Shown here one piece after another: positions 9,916 through 57,492 of a stretch of DNA of 64,000 bases. This DNA is from Candidatus Pacearchaeota archaeon. Its GTDB lineage: Archaea > Nanobdellota > Nanobdellia > Pacearchaeales > UBA284. Every line of letters begins with the position of its first letter. Positions within the stretch are counted from its first letter, which is position 1. The position numbers and the translations under genes are program-made. The notes under the pieces were generated by a model. The model did no database searches. It saw nothing but the letters and a program-made list of their open reading frames with translations, and was not told where the DNA came from. The DNA lies in the NCBI GenBank assembly GCA_026016245.1, contig CP061211.1:424879-488878 (forward strand), read 5' to 3'.

Positions 9916-11736
9916 TTAAAAAATCAACTCAAACTTTCCAAAGATCTTTCTAAGTGCATCTACCAATTCTGGAGAAATTCTTTTTTCGATTTTCTCTTTC
10001 TTTGCTGTGGCTTTTCTAAGTTCCTCTTTTGTGGCATCTGTAACCTTGCCATCTTTAAATTTCTTTATTCCATCTAGAGTTATGTCAGGGATAATGAAGG
10101 TGATATCTTTAAACAAGAATATCTCTCCTTTTTTCCTAACCTCCTTCCTTTCCTCGTTTGTTTTATAAATCAATATTATTCTATGTTTTTCTGCTTCAAG
10201 AAGTTCACGTCTTTGGCTATATTCTGTAAGCGCTAATGTCAATTGATAAGAAGCTTTTCTTACTTCAGAAAGGTCTTGTTTTGTTATTTTTCCTTTCTTA
10301 TATTTTTTCTTGGCATCTATTATCTCTTTCAAATATATGAGATTTCTTGGAGAAAGCTTTGATTTTTTAATTAACTCATTTTCAAATTTTTTGACTATGG
10401 CTGCTTCTCCACCTTTTCCTAAAATTCCTTTCATGAGCTTAAGGGTAGTATCATATATCTGTAGAATCTCTATCTCACCAGCTTTTTTCTCTATCTGCTT
10501 CATCAATTCTTTAAGTCTTTTGATATATTCTGAAGATTGTTTCAAGAGTATATCTATTTCCCTTCCACTAATTGTTTTTATCTCTTCATGCTCATATTTT
10601 TTATAGATATCAATTATTTTCTCCAGGATATTGATATATTTTGGTTCAAGAAGTTTTTCCTTCTCAACAAAAACTCTTCTCATTAATTTTACTGCTTCTT
10701 TAGGTACTGGGGGAGCAAGACCATATAACATTAAAGCTGCTTGACTTGGTGTAATGATGCCCCAATAGATATCTTCAGTAACAATATCATTCAACTTTCT
10801 CTGTACATTTTTAGCTACTCTCTCACCAAGACTCATGAACATATCTATAGCCTCAGGACTTGGTTTAATCTTGCCCATCTTAAGGAGAAGTTTCCATGGC
10901 ATGAAAGCTCCTCTGTCATAAAGAGGAACACCATCACGAATGAATGTAAAAATTACAGGATGTGCATCTTTTACTGCTTCCCAGAACTCTGTCAATATAT
11001 AAATCTGAGGATTTAACTTGTTCTCTACTCCAGCTATCTCACTTGCTTCCATAGTGTAGCTGTAAATTATAGCCCTCAATTTCTCTTTTAACTCATATCT
11101 TGACATTCTTTTAACGTCTGTATCATCTATAACCACAAAAATATCAACATCACTCGTCTTTGTTGCATCTCCCCTAACTAAAGAGCCAGCAAGAACATAA
11201 CTAACAACATACTTCTCAAACTTTTTTAGGACAAGAGTTTTATGAATAGAGGATGCTCTTAGTGCACCTAAAATACCTTTATCACATAAGGGGAAAGACA
11301 TGGCTATTGCCTCTATTAAAGCATATTTTCCATCAAAACATGTTTCCCAAACCTGCTTTATGTTCTTGATATGAAGCCACACTCTTGGTTTCATGCCTTG
11401 AATGAGTCTTATTCCCTCTACCTTTATCTTGCCTACTTCCTTGGATTTTTCTTCTGGGACTATGATAACAACATGGATTATTCTTTCATCTTTTTCTTTT
11501 TCCACCTCTTCTTCCTCTTCTATTATTTTTGCAGCTGGAGGGGGTAGAATTCCTATAGCAGAAATATAAGGGAATTTTTTTATTAGAGCCTTCTTGAAAT
11601 CCTTTAAATTGTCTCTAATTCTTTCTATCTCTTTTTTAACTTCCTTTGGGATTTGTTTCTCAATATCCCCAATTTTTTCCATTTCATACTTCTTTCCCTC
11701 TTTGTTTTTTTCAGTTTTTTTCTTCATTTTCCTCAA
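9916..11736 (-). CDS. nucleotidyltransferase-domain protein (Pol-beta superfamily), 606 aa, function unknown
   Basis: AGSLVRGDATKTSDVDIFVVIDD (GS-x9-D-x-D) near residue 185; long helical K/E-rich C-terminal region. Confidence 0.5.
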   Translation of the reverse strand: MRKMKKKTEKNKEGKKYEMEKIGDIEKQIPKEVKKEIERIRDNLKDFKKALIKKFPYISAIGILPPPAAKIIEEEEEVEKEKDERIIHVVIIVPEEKSKEVGKIKVEGIRLIQGMKPRVWLHIKNIKQVWETCFDGKYALIEAIAMSFPLCDKGILGALRASSIHKTLVLKKFEKYVVSYVLAGSLVRGDATKTSDVDIFVVIDDTDVKRMSRYELKEKLRAIIYSYTMEASEIAGVENKLNPQIYILTEFWEAVKDAHPVIFTFIRDGVPLYDRGAFMPWKLLLKMGKIKPSPEAIDMFMSLGERVAKNVQRKLNDIVTEDIYWGIITPSQAALMLYGLAPPVPKEAVKLMRRVFVEKEKLLEPKYINILEKIIDIYKKYEHEEIKTISGREIDILLKQSSEYIKRLKELMKQIEKKAGEIEILQIYDTTLKLMKGILGKGGEAAIVKKFENELIKKSKLSPRNLIYLKEIIDAKKKYKKGKITKQDLSEVRKASYQLTLALTEYSQRRELLEAEKHRIILIYKTNEERKEVRKKGEIFLFKDITFIIPDITLDGIKKFKDGKVTDATKEELRKATAKKEKIEKRISPELVDALRKIFGKFELIF

Positions 11737-44570: not shown

Positions 44571-44687
44571 GCGCCAGTAGTCTAATGGTAGGACATTAGC
44601 CTTCCAAATAAGGGCAAGCCCTTATCAACCCAAATGCTTACCTAATAAAGAAAGCTAATGATCTGGGTTCGAGTCCCGGCTGGCGCA
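44571..44687 (+). tRNA. intron-containing tRNA, most likely tRNA-Gly (anticodon UCC); ~45-nt intron at 37/38
   Basis: Acceptor GCGCCAG/CUGGCGC; anticodon stem UUAGC (44596-44600) pairs with GCUAA (44654-44658); loop CUUCCA+A; intron ~44608-44652 with internal hairpin. Confidence 0.7.
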
Positions 44688-46714: not shown

Positions 46715-46788
46715 CGCTCCCGGTGGGAGTTGAACCCACAACCTACAGCTTAGGAGGCTGTCGCGCTATCCAATTGCGCCACGGGAGC
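46715..46788 (-). tRNA. tRNA-Arg (anticodon CCU)
   Basis: Anticodon stem ACAGC/GCUGU, loop CUCCUAA. Confidence 0.85.
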
Positions 46789-46789
46789 A

Positions 46790-46873
46790 TGCGGGAGACA
46801 GGATTCGAACCTGCGTAGGCACTAAGCCAATGGATCTTGAGTCCATCCCGTTTGACCACTCCGGCACTCCCGC
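46790..46873 (-). tRNA. tRNA-Leu (anticodon CAA)
   Basis: Anticodon stem AUGGA/UCCAU, loop CUCAAGA; long variable arm. Confidence 0.85.
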
Positions 46874-47092: not shown

Positions 47093-47204
<112 letters not shown>

Positions 47205-47223
47205 TTTTCTTTAATATGATAAA

Positions 47224-47929: not shown

Positions 47930-48370
47930 TTATCTATAGGATTTTTGTCTTTTTCTCCTAGCTTTGCTGTCCCCTGGCTTATACATCTCCTTATGTCTGG
48001 TATCAGCAATAAGCAAAGATCTGTCATAATTTAGGAATGCCTTTTTTAGCTCCTGATTTTTTGTGAAAACTACCAAAGCGCGTGCTATAGCCAGCCTAGA
48101 AGCCTCTACCTGGCTTTCTACTCCGCCACCCCTCACTGCTACTTCAATATCTATCTCTTTCAGCTCTTCTTTAAGTATGTTTTCTGCTATCATTAATGGC
48201 TCTTTTAAAATTAAGTTTTGGAATTTAGTAAAGAGATCTATTGGTTTTTGATTTATCCTAATTATGCCTGTTCCTGGCTTGATTGTTGCTCTAGCAACAC
48301 TTCTCTTACGCATGCCACTAACCACTATTATTTTTGGTTTCTTTTCTTTTGTTTTGGATTTTCTTGGCAT
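47930..48370 (-). CDS. rps9: 30S ribosomal protein S9
   Basis: ...GKRKRSVARATIKPGTG... C-terminal RRKRQKSYR. Confidence 0.9.
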   Translation of the reverse strand: MPRKSKTKEKKPKIIVVSGMRKRSVARATIKPGTGIIRINQKPIDLFTKFQNLILKEPLMIAENILKEELKEIDIEVAVRGGGVESQVEASRLAIARALVVFTKNQELKKAFLNYDRSLLIADTRHKEMYKPGDSKARRKRQKSYR

Positions 48371-48377
48371 TTTTATT

Positions 48378-48800
48378 TTATTTTTGTCTTATTAATTCAC
48401 TTAATCTGCCTAGTGTGATAAAATTTAATGCTTCTCTCTTGAATACAGATATTTTTTCATCATTAGTGTATTTTTCAGGCATCCCTTCATAACACTTGAC
48501 ACGTTTGAAAGCCTCTCTTCCTTTTGTTTTTTTCCAGCCTATCATTCCTCTTATAGCTCTCCTTAACATTGCCTCTGATTTTCTGGGAAAAAGAGGCCCT
48601 TTTTGTACTCCTCTACCAAGCCTAAATTTCTTTAGATAGCTTTCTAGTATTTGTTTTGGTCTTCCGATGATTATTGCCTCTTCACTATTAACTATAATGA
48701 TAAAATTGCCCTGCAAAGCTTTTTTAGCAGCAAAACTAGAAAGCCTGCCAACTACAGCTCCTTTTGCGTCAATAATAATTTCTTTTATTTTTTCTTTCAT
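48378..48800 (-). CDS. rpl13: 50S ribosomal protein L13
   Basis: IIDAKGAVVGRLSSFAAKKAL... Confidence 0.9.
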   Translation of the reverse strand: MKEKIKEIIIDAKGAVVGRLSSFAAKKALQGNFIIIVNSEEAIIIGRPKQILESYLKKFRLGRGVQKGPLFPRKSEAMLRRAIRGMIGWKKTKGREAFKRVKCYEGMPEKYTNDEKISVFKREALNFITLGRLSELIRQK

Positions 48801-48801
48801 T

Positions 48802-49185
48802 TTATATGATTATTCTTACATTTAGTCCTTTAAATTTAGATATTTTTTCAGCCAACTCTTTTATAGATAAAAGCTCGGCTTTTTTGGTAAGTCTTTTTTT
48901 TGCTTTATCGGAAAATTTAAATGCAGCTATGATCAATTTGTGATTTAAAGTGCCTCTACTTAATATTTTTCCTGGAACAATCACAACTTCATCTCCTTCA
49001 GTCAGCTTGTTTATTTTATCTATATTAACGCTGATTGCTTTTTTTCTTGGTCTTGATAAATACTTGGCTGTTTGATGCCATAGAGGCTTTTTTTGTTTGT
49101 TTAGAAAAATAACTAAGTCTTTTACTTCAGGATCTGTTTTTTTGCTTATTCTTTTCCTTATTCTTGTTTTGCTGATTTTTTTCAT
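48802..49185 (-). CDS. rpl18e: 50S ribosomal protein L18e
   Basis: Sequence and canonical position between RpoD and L13. Confidence 0.8.
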   Translation of the reverse strand: MKKISKTRIRKRISKKTDPEVKDLVIFLNKQKKPLWHQTAKYLSRPRKKAISVNIDKINKLTEGDEVVIVPGKILSRGTLNHKLIIAAFKFSDKAKKRLTKKAELLSIKELAEKISKFKGLNVRIII

Positions 49186-49191
49186 TTTCTA

Positions 49192-49275
49192 TGCGGAAGA
49201 CAGGATTCGAACCTGCGTAGGCACTAAGCCACATGGACCTTAGCCATGCCCGTTTGACCACTCCGGCACTCCCGC
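49192..49275 (-). tRNA. tRNA-Leu with apparent anticodon AAG (A34, unusual for archaea)
   Basis: Identical to the tRNA-Leu(CAA) at 46790..46873 except one acceptor base and the anticodon stem-loop: stem CAUGG/CCAUG, loop CUAAGGU. Confidence 0.7.
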
Positions 49276-49290
49276 GCCATTATTTGCTTA

Positions 49291-50085
49291 TTATTTTGTG
49301 GTCTTAAATTTTTTAATCTGCTTCTCAAATTCTTTGAGATTATTATCTAAACTATTTATAGCATCAACAAATATTTCTTCTGATTTAAGCTGACCAAAAC
49401 TTTCTATATAAAAAATAAAGTCTTCCTCACTTGGCTTTATGCTTATAGAACATTTTTCTTTATTTTTTAAGAATTCAACACAAGCTTCACAAATATCACA
49501 TTTAAGAGGATCAATTATTAATTTTTTATCTTTAAAGCTGATTGCCTTTCTAGGACAAATATCAATGCATTCTGTACATTCAGAACAACCTTTTATGTCA
49601 ATAATAGGAAATGAATTAAACCATACTAACCCTGGTGTAAATTTTGCATGCTCTCTACCTGTTCCTAATGTGGCTTGCGCAGTTAATTGAAGCTCTTGAT
49701 CTTTAGCAAGTAAGACAATAGGCATCTCAGGATAAACTATTTCCATACCTTTTGTTTTCAGGTCTTTAGCATTTACCATAGCAGGTCCTTTTGCCTTAAG
49801 CTTAAGTGCTGCAGTGCATTTTAGACAGCCTTTTCCCTTACAAGTACATTTTTTCCTTGGTGTAAATGTTTTTGTTGATTTTAGTGGAATCAGGCCTATC
49901 CTATGAGCAAGCATCTCATCATAAAGAGCTGAATCATTCTTGGAAAACTCAACTGTATCAATAGCTAGTATAGGAATTTCAAGAACATTCCTCCTAATTG
50001 AATTTGCTATGCTATTATTTATTCCTTTAACCAAAAAACTTATCTTTTCCTTAGTTTTAGATATTTTTTCTATTTTTATTGCCAT
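49291..50085 (-). CDS. rpoD: DNA-directed RNA polymerase subunit D (Rpo3) with ferredoxin-like Cys cluster
   Basis: Rpb3/RpoD fold with CSECTECIDICP...CDICEACV insert. Confidence 0.85.
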   Translation of the reverse strand: MAIKIEKISKTKEKISFLVKGINNSIANSIRRNVLEIPILAIDTVEFSKNDSALYDEMLAHRIGLIPLKSTKTFTPRKKCTCKGKGCLKCTAALKLKAKGPAMVNAKDLKTKGMEIVYPEMPIVLLAKDQELQLTAQATLGTGREHAKFTPGLVWFNSFPIIDIKGCSECTECIDICPRKAISFKDKKLIIDPLKCDICEACVEFLKNKEKCSISIKPSEEDFIFYIESFGQLKSEEIFVDAINSLDNNLKEFEKQIKKFKTTK

Positions 50086-53776: not shown

Positions 53777-54529
53777 TCATCCACGAAATAATTTCTTTAG
53801 AATATCAAGAGTATAAAGTATAGAAGCTTTTGATTGTGACTTAGTTGGATTAAACGGCCTTTTGCTCTTATGCACTGAGGCTACCCTTAAATGATTTATT
53901 AAATGAATCTGATTGCTCAATCCAGGATCAAGATTAATTTCTTTTTCCTTAAACTTCAGAACCAGGTTACCTAGACCAATATCAGGGCTTTTTTGAAGCA
54001 AATCCCTTCCAGTCAAGTCAAAATATCTCTTGTGTAAAGCTATCTCAAGAATTCTGCCACATAAAATCAAAGCACTACGATAACATCTATGCTCATAACA
54101 TTTAACAAGCTCATCAAAAGATGCTTTTGTTTCAGAATAAATATCACGAGGAATATAAGGCAGGTAAAATTCCCCTTTAGGCAAATCACCATCTGGCACT
54201 CTCACTGATGGAACTATATCAAAAATTTCTTCTATAGATACAACAGATTCAAGAAATTTGTTGGAGTTAATCATCTTTTTTAAATCTTTAATCTTCATTG
54301 ATGCCTCTGTCAAGGCCCTTTTCTCTGTAGGGGCTATAGTAAAGCTTTCATTTAATACAGCTTCTAGCCTTTTCATCGCATTTTCTATCTCTCTAGAATA
54401 ATACTCTCTCTCACGACGCTTAAAATGAAACTCATCTCCAACTATTCTAGAACTAAAATCTATCCTTCTGGATAAAACATTATTGATAATATCCTTTAAT
54501 TCCAGAAGCACCCCTTTTAAGCTAGCCAT
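53777..54529 (-). CDS. hypothetical protein with C-terminal HEPN-like R-x4-H motif
   Basis: LINHLRVASVHKSKRP (R-x4-H) near the C-terminus; helical context. Confidence 0.45.
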   Translation of the reverse strand: MASLKGVLLELKDIINNVLSRRIDFSSRIVGDEFHFKRREREYYSREIENAMKRLEAVLNESFTIAPTEKRALTEASMKIKDLKKMINSNKFLESVVSIEEIFDIVPSVRVPDGDLPKGEFYLPYIPRDIYSETKASFDELVKCYEHRCYRSALILCGRILEIALHKRYFDLTGRDLLQKSPDIGLGNLVLKFKEKEINLDPGLSNQIHLINHLRVASVHKSKRPFNPTKSQSKASILYTLDILKKLFRG

Positions 54530-54580
54530 CTAAAAATCAAGCAAGGAAAATTTTTAAGCTTTTGTATAGTAAAATATAAT

Positions 54581-55306
54581 CTATTTGAAGTTCTTAAAAG
54601 CCTTGCTTATGCTTTCATTCCAAAATTTAGGAAGCTCATAACTAAGCATGCCCTGAAATTCATCACTCCAGACATAAAAGAATTTTTCCCCCTCTTCCTG
54701 TTTCTTAAATAAAGGCCTGATTTTTTCATACATTTTCTGCAAAGCACGCCTCTCAAATTCAGCCTGTAATAAGGATGGTTCCTTCAATAACAAAATATCA
54801 GCAAGCCTTAAAACATTAACATCAAGCATAGCACTACTTTGAGCAATCAGAAAGAGGGTAAGATCCTTATGACGGGCAATAGCCATCAACTTGCCTAACA
54901 TTTTATTAGCATCTTTCATTGAGTCTCTAGCAGAATAAACTATTGCTCCTTCATCAACAAGAACAGCAGAATGAAGAGGTATTTTATCAAGAGATTCTTC
55001 TTTCTTTATCCATCTAGGCAGCTTAGCTTTTCCAAAACCAACAGCATAACATTTTTTTCTATAAGAGTTAAGAACAGAAAGGAGAACCATACCTAAACTT
55101 GTCTTCCCACTTCCTCTTTTGCCTGTAATTAAAATGATCTGGCTATATTTAAGCACCCTATTAAAGAAGCTATCAAACTCTCCATCCTCAGCCTTAACAA
55201 TAGAAAATGGCTGTATTGGCTCTATTTTTTTAGGCTTTTTTCTGAATATATCAAAGATTCCCATTAAAATCCTCTGTTTTAGGAATATAAAAGCTTTAGA
55301 AATCAC
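54581..55306 (-). CDS. P-loop NTPase (Walker A/B), family unassigned
   Basis: Walker A ILITGKRGSGKTS; Walker B AVLVDEGA; immediately upstream of the HEPN-motif gene. Confidence 0.6.
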   Translation of the reverse strand: MISKAFIFLKQRILMGIFDIFRKKPKKIEPIQPFSIVKAEDGEFDSFFNRVLKYSQIILITGKRGSGKTSLGMVLLSVLNSYRKKCYAVGFGKAKLPRWIKKEESLDKIPLHSAVLVDEGAIVYSARDSMKDANKMLGKLMAIARHKDLTLFLIAQSSAMLDVNVLRLADILLLKEPSLLQAEFERRALQKMYEKIRPLFKKQEEGEKFFYVWSDEFQGMLSYELPKFWNESISKAFKNFK

Positions 55307-55359: not shown

Positions 55360-56181
55360 ATGTTAACAGATAAAGCATTAGTTGAAGAAATACTGGATAA
55401 AAAGAAGTACATAAAAAAGAAAGGCTCTGATATATATGTCGTACTCGAAGAGCTCTTTGATGGGGCATTAGAAAGAGAGGCTCTGGAACATTCATTGAGA
55501 ATAGAGTATCCTGTAGCAAAAGCGCTAAAGAAAGGGAATACTAAAAAATATACTAAAGAAATTAAAAGATTGAGCAAAAACCTAAAGAAAGCGTGGGAGT
55601 TTGGAAAAAAGAACTTCACGATACCTTTTGATAAAGATTTCTTAATAAAATTAGCTTATCAGATAGATCCTGAAGCATTTAGAACAAATGGTGGATTGAT
55701 AAAAGATTATAGAAAGTTCAATGTTAGAGTGCGTGGTTCTTGTATAAAACCTCCTTATCCAGAGAAATTAAGACTTTCTATGAAAAGGTTTTTTGATGGT
55801 TTAGATCAACTTTATGGGGAATGTAAAAACAGAACAGCATATGTGCCTGAAAGATATTTTGATATAGGTTCTTGGATGCATTTGCATCTTGCTAGAATAC
55901 ATCCTTTTGAAGACACAAATGGTAGGACATCTAGAATGGCCAATAATCTTTATTTAAGAAGTTCAAATTCTTTTCCTCCTATCATAATTTATGAAGGAGA
56001 AAGGCAGGATTATGAAAATCATATAGAAAAAGCGTTGATAGGATTTAGAGAAAGAGATGGCAGGAAAAATTTGGCTGCAAAAAGAGATGAGCTTTCAGGA
56101 GGAGAAAGAGAATTTTATGATTACTTGGCTGGTAAGCTTAATACCAGTCTTGACAAGGTTATTGAAAAGAAAGGCGCTTAA
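55360..56181 (+). CDS. Fic/Doc family protein with variant Fic motif
   Basis: HPFEDTNGRTSR matches HxFx(D/E)GNGRxxR with Thr replacing the first Gly. Confidence 0.75.
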   Translation: MLTDKALVEEILDKKKYIKKKGSDIYVVLEELFDGALEREALEHSLRIEYPVAKALKKGNTKKYTKEIKRLSKNLKKAWEFGKKNFTIPFDKDFLIKLAYQIDPEAFRTNGGLIKDYRKFNVRVRGSCIKPPYPEKLRLSMKRFFDGLDQLYGECKNRTAYVPERYFDIGSWMHLHLARIHPFEDTNGRTSRMANNLYLRSSNSFPPIIIYEGERQDYENHIEKALIGFRERDGRKNLAAKRDELSGGEREFYDYLAGKLNTSLDKVIEKKGA

Positions 56182-56217
56182 GAAAAGAATTTTAAATTCC
56201 TTTTTCTTTGTTTTATT

Positions 56218-56883
56218 ATGATTGATTTTGATGAATTAATTGATGAGCATATAAAAAGAGAGTATAAGCCGAAAGGTATAGGAAGATATTATCCTTCTGA
56301 GGCTGGTAGCTGTTTAAGAAAGGTGTGGTATTCTTATAAATATCCTACAGAAATAGCTCCTGAATTGAGAAAGATTTTTGAAATGGGCAATATAATACAT
56401 GATTTTATTGTTCAAGTCTTAAAGTCAGAAAAGACACCACAAGTCGAGCTTCTTAAATCAGAATTTCCTTTCAAAGAGCAAATTGAAGATTTCACAATAT
56501 CAGGAAGAATTGACAATCTTATCAAAGTTAAAATTAGCGGCAAAATCTATCTTGTAGAAATAAAAAGTAGTGCAGGCATAAGGTTTGTTAAAGAAGCTTC
56601 CCCACACAATGTCCAACAACTTCAATTATACATGCATTTTATTGGAGTTCATAACGGTCTTTTAGTCTATATTGACAAATCCACACTAAAAACAAAAGTT
56701 TTTGAAATTAATTATGACAAAGAAAAAGCCCAAAAAATCCTAGAGAGATTCAAACTTCTTCATAAATTATTAACAACAAACACACTACCAGAACCAGAGG
56801 CAAGAAAACATGAGAAAACTAAGTGGATGTGTAGGTATTGTGAATATAAAGATAGGTGTCATAAAGACACCTCAAGAATATAA
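56218..56883 (+). CDS. PD-(D/E)xK nuclease, Cas4-like (DUF83-like) with Cys cluster
   Basis: N-terminal Cys (GSCLRK), RIDNL...YLVEIKSS nuclease motif, C-terminal CRYCEYKDRC. Confidence 0.5.
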   Translation: MIDFDELIDEHIKREYKPKGIGRYYPSEAGSCLRKVWYSYKYPTEIAPELRKIFEMGNIIHDFIVQVLKSEKTPQVELLKSEFPFKEQIEDFTISGRIDNLIKVKISGKIYLVEIKSSAGIRFVKEASPHNVQQLQLYMHFIGVHNGLLVYIDKSTLKTKVFEINYDKEKAQKILERFKLLHKLLTTNTLPEPEARKHEKTKWMCRYCEYKDRCHKDTSRI

Positions 56884-56937: not shown

Positions 56938-57492
56938 ATGAAACAAAAGCTATTAAGCAAATCTTTCTTCAACAAAGATACAGTAAAAACTGCAAAAGCT
57001 CTGCTTGGGAAAATAATCAAATATAAGAATACATCTGGAATAATAATAGAAACAGAAGCTTACAAAGGAAAAGAAGATGGTGATGAGGCAAGCCATGCAT
57101 TCAAAAAAACAGAAAGAAGCGAGTTAATGTACAACAGTTATGGCAAATTCTATATTTATTTTATTTATGGAAATTATTACTGTCTTAATATCACAGCAGA
57201 AAAAAACAAACCAGGAGCTGTATTAATCAGAGCAATTAAACCAATAAAAGGAATAAAGAATATGGAAAAAAGAAGACAAAGGAAAGATAACTTGACAGAT
57301 GGTCCTGGAAAATTATGCCAAGCCTTAAACATAACTAAAGCCTTAAATGGAACAGATATTAATGACAAAATTAAAATACTAAAAGGAATAAAAATAAAAA
57401 ATTCTCAAATAGGTTGTTCAAGTAGAATAGGGATAAATAAAGCTCAACATTTAAAATGGAGATTTTTTGTTAAAGAAAAAGATGCCAGCTAA
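56938..57492 (+). CDS. mpg: DNA-3-methyladenine glycosylase (Mpg/AAG family)
   Basis: LLGKIIKY...GIIIETEAYKGKEDGDEASHAF...GKFYIYFIYGNYYCLNI...AVLIRAIKP...GPGKLCQAL. Confidence 0.8.
   Translation: MKQKLLSKSFFNKDTVKTAKALLGKIIKYKNTSGIIIETEAYKGKEDGDEASHAFKKTERSELMYNSYGKFYIYFIYGNYYCLNITAEKNKPGAVLIRAIKPIKGIKNMEKRRQRKDNLTDGPGKLCQALNITKALNGTDINDKIKILKGIKIKNSQIGCSSRIGINKAQHLKWRFFVKEKDAS

Follow-up and report, generated by a model that had tools for sequence, protein, structure and literature searches.

Archaea are described in reviews of tRNA biology as being without A34 tRNAs (PMC8879553; PMC11066159). In the 64-kb stretch of Pacearchaeota (DPANN) DNA analysed here (the window; GC ~31%, source contig of 710,724 nt, ~0.71 Mb) one tRNA-Leu gene nevertheless reads AAG in its anticodon loop, and a first, sequence-only reading of this DNA had correctly pointed out that A34 is unexpected in an archaeal host. 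The locus thus raises the question whether A34 is real and retained, and, if so, which codons it serves and in which chemical form.

The tRNA-Leu(AAG) gene and its surroundings

ARAGORN, the Rfam model RF00005 and direct reading of the DNA agree on an 84-nt class II tRNA-Leu(AAG) gene (Table 1), with RF00005 scoring 51.6 bits at the same coordinates (gathering score 29, E = 3.6e-08). Read directly, the 5' part of the RNA is GCGGGAG UG CCGG AGUGGUCAAA CGGG CAUGG CUAAGGU CCAUG U, followed by the 3' part GGCUUAGUGCCU ACGCAGG UUCGAAU CCUGU CUUCCGC A. The acceptor stem has 7 bp including one G5.U68 pair, D arm and T arm are present, and the anticodon stem consists of 5 bp (CAUGG/CCAUG). Only the AAG register gives a 7-nt loop with U33 in this tRNA. 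The assignment of the loop CUAAGGU to the anticodon AAG, already made in the sequence-only reading, is hence borne out, and the tRNA stands under the covariance model. With its long variable arm (UGGCUUAGUGCCU), its 3' end ...CCGC-A73 with A73 as discriminator, U33, a purine at position 37 and a Leu anticodon, the RNA shows the features of a class II tRNA-Leu. LeuRS recognises its tRNAs by the long variable arm and A73, the anticodon not being among its identity elements. CCA is not encoded by the gene, and because the tRNA genes here are without encoded CCA a CCA-adding enzyme would be required; the gene next to tRNA-Val(UAC) encodes 606 aa with an NTP_transf_2/Polbeta nucleotidyltransferase domain and may specify this enzyme.

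Table 1. Positions of the tRNA-Leu(AAG) gene and of the other features of the window named in the text.
Feature	Coordinates	Strand	Basis or detail
tRNA-Leu(AAG) gene, 84 nt, class II	49192-49275	-	ARAGORN, Rfam RF00005, direct reading
Anticodon loop C32-U33-A34-A35-G36-G37-U38, 7 nt	49237-49243	-	direct reading
Anticodon AAG	49239-49241	-	A34 = 49241, A35 = 49240, G36 = 49239
rpoD (RNA polymerase subunit D)	49291-50085	-	ORF list; Pfam PF01000/PF01193
rpl18e	48802-49185	-	ORF list; Pfam labels of syntenic genes in relatives
rpl13	48378-48800	after rpl18e	ORF list
rps9	47930-48370	after rpl13	ORF list
tRNA-Leu(CAA), paralogue with the same body	46790-46873	-	ARAGORN, RF00005, alignment
tRNA-Leu(CAA) and tRNA-Arg(CCU) pair	46715-46873	-	
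Solitary 5S rRNA gene	47093-47205	+	
tRNA with insertion, probably tRNA-Gly(UCC)	44571-44687	+	Rfam
606-aa protein, NTP_transf_2/Polbeta domain	9916-11736	-	
DUF4145-like, nSTAND3-like NTPase, Fic/DOC and Cas4-like PD-(D/E)XK nuclease genes	53777-55306; 55360-56883	-; +	
Ham1-family ITP/XTP pyrophosphatase	1779-2372	-	
Methylpurine-DNA glycosylase (Pur_DNA_glyco)	56938-57492	+	

According to the ORF list the gene lies in the order S13-S4-S11-RpoD-[tRNA]-L18e-L13-S9, and the encoded RpoD is 100% identical to the RpoD, with PF01000/PF01193, of an NCBI Pacearchaeota MAG. Since the spacers to the rpoD stop codon upstream and from the tRNA 3' end to the rpl18e start codon downstream measure only 15 and 6 nt, respectively, tRNA-Leu(AAG) is very probably co-transcribed with rpoD and rpl18e and would then be freed by RNase P and tRNase Z. 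Beside the ribosomal operon lies a group of genes encoding DUF4145-like, nSTAND3-like NTPase, Fic/DOC and Cas4-like PD-(D/E)XK nuclease proteins, which may form a defence-type module; its DUF4145-like and nSTAND3-like genes are syntenic in two relatives (L002, L005).

A paralogue with the same body, tRNA-Leu(CAA), is found 2.3 kb away. Over an ungapped alignment of 84 columns both genes differ at 11 positions of the anticodon arm and at a single acceptor position (column 79, U vs C, by which G5.U68 replaces G5-C68), exactly as had been noticed from the sequence alone. In the relatives, the AAG and CAA genes of each genome carry that genome's own T-arm variant, GCGAAGG...CCUUCC in L008/L009 and GCGCAGG...CCUGUC elsewhere. 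As these variants are genome-specific, the near-identity of the AAG and CAA genes reflects co-evolution of the Leu bodies within a genome and not recency, a pattern suggestive of concerted evolution or gene conversion among the Leu tRNA genes. Since the Leu isoacceptors of one genome share a body, switching of the anticodon by single substitutions should moreover be easy. The tRNA-Leu(CAA) gene abuts tRNA-Arg(CCU) with a 1-nt spacer, a pair that is kept in L002, L003 and L005. On the opposite strand, at a distance of ~220 nt, there is a solitary 5S rRNA gene. A further tRNA, detected by Rfam and left without a call by ARAGORN in default mode, carries a 48-nt insertion in its anticodon loop, which begins with CUUCC; it is probably an intron-containing tRNA-Gly(UCC), and syntenic Gly(UCC) genes are present in relatives, with an intron in L005.

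Conservation of A34 among relatives

To follow the tRNA at its position, rpoD neighbourhoods were fetched from relatives with ever lower identity in RpoD. The slot bounded by rpoD and rpl18e carries an AAG tRNA in 7 further species with RpoD identities of 54-79%, namely in L002/L003 (79%), L005/L006 (78%), L008/L009 (67%), L011 (60%), L014 (60%; CP070794.1, 647,887 nt), L012/L013 (61%) and L015 (54%). In L012/L013 and L015 a 39-40-nt insertion follows right after C-U-A-A-G-G, and according to our hand reading splicing with at least 5 loop bases 5' of the intron always yields AAG. Neither ARAGORN in default mode nor Rfam gave a call for these slot tRNAs; with introns allowed, ARAGORN proposed 'Phe aaa' for L012 and L015, which we judged to be a mis-typing after reading the DNA by hand. 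The anticodon stems of the slot orthologues differ in a compensatory manner (CAUGG/CCAUG, UACGG/CCGUA, UAUGG/CCAUA). In a covariation alignment of 16 intronless AAG genes, 17 of the 24 predicted stem pairs show double compensatory changes, and U33-A34-A35-G36-G37 is invariant in 16/16, with C or U at position 32 and U, C or A at position 38. These data show that tRNA-Leu(AAG) is under purifying selection which retains A34.

AAG occupies the slot also in lineages whose RpoD is 36-60% identical. Among the loci collected, the slot holds AAG in L050, L068, L074, L099, L102, L108, L112, L115 and L134, GAG in L092 and L093, and UAA, CAA or UAG in further DPANN lineages. On a rough neighbour-joining tree of RpoD, AAG is present in most of the Pacearchaeota-like clade and, beyond it, in two or more further deep branches. 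AAG hence arose early, more than once, or both.

To estimate how widespread the anticodon is, we carried out two scans with patterns taken from the window tRNA body, in which the anticodon was left unspecified. Because the patterns derive from the body of this very tRNA, window-like lineages are sampled; within these, the ratio of AAG to GAG is unbiased by the query. The first scan (pattern of variable arm and T arm; a single genome for each GTDB species; at least 120 loci, L016-L135) returned at least 14 AAG genes (L040, L050, L051, L068, L074, L096, L099, L102, L108, L110, L112, L115, L121, L134) and, among the matches listed, 4 GAG genes (L062, L092, L093, L116). Its AAG carriers are labelled Pacearchaeota, Woesearchaeota or Nanoarchaeota, and one 'Aenigmatarchaeota', among the matches listed. 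The second scan (exact 5' half against metagenome contigs; at least 120 loci, L136-L255) gave, for intronless genes among the matches listed, UAG 23, UAA 16, AAG 15, CAA 14, GAG 9 and CAG 1, and for intron-bearing ones ~11 AAG and ~4 GAG. When the intronless matches listed are pooled, the counts are UAG 44, CAA 34, AAG 25, UAA 25, GAG 12 and CAG 7. Both scans together thus contribute ~40 more AAG genes on contigs labelled Pacearchaeota, Woesearchaeota or Nanoarchaeota among the matches listed, and the loop YUAAGGN is found in ~48 independent assemblies (NCBI, ENA, JGI, Logan; among the matches listed), always with 7 nt. This recurrence of A34 is far beyond chance.

Several observations on individual matches accompany these counts. 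The AAG carrier L051 is labelled 'Nomurabacteria', most likely through an error of binning or labelling. The same likely holds for the labels Omnitrophota, Nomurabacteria and 'uncultured Methanosarcinales' on contigs such as L028, L051 and L026/L027/L054; the tRNA-Leu genes on these contigs are of DPANN type, and some contain introns. At three loci position 33 apparently holds C in place of the near-universal U, namely L107:853, L091:624 (loop CCUAGGA) and L245 (CCAAGGC); L107 lies in the rpoD slot and comes from a Pacearchaeota whose RpoD is 56% identical. Many Leu tRNA genes, AAG included, bear non-canonical introns directly 5' of the anticodon loop or elsewhere (for example L050, L068, L112, L183, L225, L227, L239), some apparently two. 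ARAGORN with introns allowed mis-typed such Leu genes as 'Phe aaa', 'Pro agg' or 'Ala agc', and these were re-read by hand. If the intron of L012:6814-6921 is a canonical 37/38 intron, the bases facing positions 32-35 are UCAG, complementing C-U-G-A with G34 and not C-U-A-A, which might go back to an ancestor with GAG. Such intron-anticodon pairing, considered as evidence for the earlier base and read by hand, fits G34 in L012, A34 in L015 and a CAA-like anticodon in L200, and was left unused because these three are inconsistent.

That A34 is unexpected in archaea, and that the tRNA body forms a two-copy repeat in the window at which de Bruijn assembly breaks, would suit an error in the reads or in their assembly, or an indel that went unnoticed, with UAA, UAG or GAG as the true anticodon; the sequence-only reading had considered a single-base error that conceals UAA. 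Logan unitigs of run DRR463595, produced by a second assembler, reproduce both sides of the gene. One unitig (L001) comprises rpoD and the 5' half of the tRNA and terminates exactly at ...GGCAUGGCUAAG (...GGCUAAG), the other (L256) has its start in the variable arm and extends past ...CUGUCUUCCGCA into rpl18e, the break within the gene being due to the repetition of the tRNA body in the CAA paralogue. The reads, as assembled a second time, hence agree with AAG. Since the loop moreover recurs in the ~48 assemblies among the matches listed, this reading fails, and we consider an error at this site to be ruled out for all practical purposes.

The near-identity with the CAA gene could instead suggest a recent duplicate or decaying paralogue of tRNA-Leu(CAA) or tRNA-Leu(GAG) without a decoding role, in line with the earlier suggestion of a recently diverged copy that is changing its identity. 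This reading fails because AAG occupies the same slot at RpoD identities of 36-60% with compensatory changes in its stems. The position inside an essential operon is fixed over this deep divergence, the covariation and the invariant loop from U33 to G37 speak against decay, the orthologues have gained and retained introns yet preserve CUAAGG, and body identity among Leu isoacceptors is a general feature within these genomes, so that a recent or decaying copy appears extremely improbable. Because eukaryotes and some bacteria typically possess tRNA-Leu(AAG), one might think of a foreign gene that a mobile element brought in from a bacterium, a eukaryote or a virus, but the body is that of the resident archaeal tRNA-Leu(CAA) and the location is a core operon of ribosomal proteins and RNA polymerase. 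The orthologues also carry introns in or beside the anticodon loop, a placement seen for archaeal tRNA introns, with the caveat that ARAGORN sites some of them differently and calls L012 and L015 aaa. The chance of such an origin is thus close to nil. The gene is a genuine tRNA-Leu(AAG) that is kept by selection, and we regard this point as settled.

The leucine box and codon usage

The canonical archaeal tRNA-Leu(GAG) occupies the same slot in L092 and L093 and shares body, G36-G37 and codon box with the AAG tRNA, from which it differs by one base at position 34; its carriers are GC-richer among the matches listed. AAG and UAG occur together in one genome in L115 (on a single contig) and in L050 with L055 (one MAG), whereas a pair of AAG and GAG was not found among the matches listed in the sampled contigs and partial genomes. 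In the other family boxes of the same loci the matches listed show G34, with Thr GGU 6, Val GAC 4 and Arg GCG 2, and no Thr, Val or Arg tRNA with A34 was found among them. As these other purine-34 tRNAs are all G34, A34 is therefore particular to the Leu box. A 'tRNA-Ala(agc)' called by ARAGORN in L069 was considered as a second A34 tRNA and rejected, as it reads as tRNA-Arg(CCU) with a non-canonical intron.

Among the matches listed, the median GC of AAG loci is 0.323 (n=23) vs 0.401 for GAG loci (n=11), with a one-sided Mann-Whitney p = 8.7e-5 computed without phylogenetic correction. Two AAG carriers are not AT-rich, L121 with a GC of 0.50 and CUC > CUU, and L134 with a GC of 0.40. In the window the Leu codons are UUA 628, CUU 463, UUG 231, CUA 212, CUG 89 and CUC 83, CUU thus being ~5.6 times as frequent as CUC. 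These codon counts, together with the AT-richer composition of AAG loci, favour the suggestion made from the sequence alone that the tRNA decodes abundant Leu codons in an AT-rich genome. The share C/(U+C) in the window is 15% for Leu and 15-19% for Val, Thr, Pro, Ala and Ser, and no special depletion of CUC was found in the window or in the pooled AAG loci. Since the CUC share is normal for C-ending family-box codons, there is no sign of poor CUC reading. In L121 and L134 the CUY codons are shifted to U relative to Val and Thr (Fisher p = 0.003 and 0.012, small samples), which is at most a hint. Because the U/C ratios are equal in boxes that use G34, AT-richness alone cannot explain a switch confined to Leu. 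The data thus support a replacement of G34 by A34 which is lineage-wide and Leu-specific, a point that the sequence-only reading had not seen.

Decoding by A34 and comparison with known systems

When conservation, breadth and codon usage are taken together, tRNA-Leu(AAG) has probably replaced tRNA-Leu(GAG) as decoder of CUU and CUC here and in much of the Pacearchaeota/Woesearchaeota radiation. In the course of events that we propose, AT pressure would have made CUU dominant and A34 thereby advantageous, as A34 should pair with CUU in Watson-Crick geometry and thus fit this codon better than a G34.U pair does. Since the anticodon is generally not read by LeuRS, the change from G34 to A34 should have been without effect on charging; the synthetases for Ala and Ser likewise disregard the anticodon. 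The codons CUA and CUG would be covered by tRNA-Leu(UAG), which accompanies AAG in the relatives named above.

With regard to its chemical form, the balance of evidence inclines us to the view that A34 stays unmodified, by analogy to Mycoplasma tRNA-Thr(AGU) and to organelles. The reduced AT-rich genomes, an Arg box with GCG and not ACG, and the fact that no deaminase was found in the window or in 1.78 Mb of related DNA favour this form. If A34 is unmodified, reading of the rarer codon CUC would have to rely on a weak A34:C pair, on tRNA-Leu(UAG), or on both. For comparison, an orthogonal AAG tRNA in E. coli was reported to read CUU over CUC at ~76:24 with ~15% of the tRNA carrying inosine, and for such partly modified A34 tRNAs the authors credit much of the reading of C-ending codons to the inosine form (PMC11066159).

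It is conceivable, though in our judgement rather unlikely, that A34 is instead deaminated to I34 by an enzyme that has so far escaped notice in archaea, possibly a bacterial TadA gained by horizontal transfer or a member of another, new family. The resulting tRNA-Leu(IAG) would read CUU, CUC and CUA, as it does in eukaryotes and certain Firmicutes. In its favour, where a conserved A34 has taken over from G34 it is nearly always found as I34, reduced genomes and organelles excepted, and G34 is absent where I34 is used (PMC8879553; PMC11066159), which the missing AAG and GAG pair among the matches listed resembles. CUC is used at a normal share in the window, and AAG is kept in L121 in spite of its GC content and its preference for CUC. 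Bacterial TadA is reported to make I34 in tRNA-Leu as well as in tRNA-Arg (PMC8266599), and some DPANN have acquired the bacterial position-34 pathway for queuosine (PMC8204110). Against it stands the description of archaea as being without A34 tRNAs, the precursors of I34 (PMC11066159; PMC8879553), and, among the matches listed, the Arg box of these lineages is GCG and not the classical TadA substrate ACG. The genomes measure 0.6-0.9 Mb and have minimal enzyme sets.

No CDA-fold deaminase was found in the 64-kb window by Pfam on 40 ORFs or by a zinc-motif scan of all ORFs, and tblastn with E. coli and S. aureus TadA queries found no TadA in 1.78 Mb of related DPANN loci. A zinc-motif regular expression over all ORFs of 255 loci (~2 genome equivalents spread over >200 genomes) likewise returned no deaminase; with no TadA-like ORF and no ORF with the motif H/CAE...PCxxC in the window or the 1.78 Mb, these results compare with ~2 matches expected if the enzyme were universal, so that they are weak evidence against it. 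A search for tadA or deaminase in the supplements of DPANN genome papers gave nothing relevant. Two further genes of the window belong to families that act on hypoxanthine or inosine, be it in nucleotides or in DNA: one encodes a Ham1-family ITP/XTP pyrophosphatase, the other a methylpurine-DNA glycosylase (Pur_DNA_glyco). We found no evidence in the window for a link of these two genes to tRNA-Leu(AAG).

An unmodified A34, the form we favour, would have its closest parallels in Mycoplasma tRNA-Thr(AGU) and yeast mitochondrial tRNA-Arg(ACG), which like the present case belong to small, AT-rich, reduced genomes with a single A34 tRNA per four-codon box, and which resemble it in that no A34 deaminase is known and A34 matches the common U-ending codon (PMC11066159). 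Unlike these systems, which concern one genus or an organelle, the host here is archaeal, the box is Leu, the companion UAG is kept (in relatives), and the trait extends over a very large and deep radiation. The tRNA-Leu(IAG) of eukaryotes, a substrate of ADAT2/3, has the same AAG anticodon in its gene and the same box, with the G34 isoacceptor apparently displaced (PMC8879553), and a TadA-modified tRNA-Leu of the same anticodon and box is reported for bacteria (PMC8266599). In contrast to such I34 systems, the Arg box here is GCG, no deaminase was found in the window and the 1.78 Mb, and one box is affected compared to 7-8 in eukaryotes. Isolated archaeal gains of tRNA-ANN, including Leu-AAG in Ferroplasma, have been described as single-genome events among 167 genomes (PMC6000648). 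Compared to these, AAG is here in the majority over GAG (25:12, intronless, among the matches listed), syntenic and under selection. We found no description of A34 tRNAs in DPANN in the open-access literature; an earlier description elsewhere is possible.

The statement that archaea encode no A34 tRNAs and use G34 serves as a generalisation in models of code and wobble evolution (PMC6000648; PMC8879553; PMC11066159), and a very large archaeal radiation breaks this rule systematically, in one box only. It thereby offers a natural system in which to ask why A34 is normally avoided and what permits it, with AT pressure, a LeuRS blind to the anticodon and the presence of a U34 tRNA beside it as candidates. 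For DPANN genomes, Leu-AAG should be expected by annotation pipelines and codon-adaptation models and not be flagged as an error. Wobble inosine in archaea becomes a directly testable question; should A34 turn out to be converted to I34, archaea would have their first case of wobble inosine, and I34 decoding, confined to one box, would have arisen there independently.
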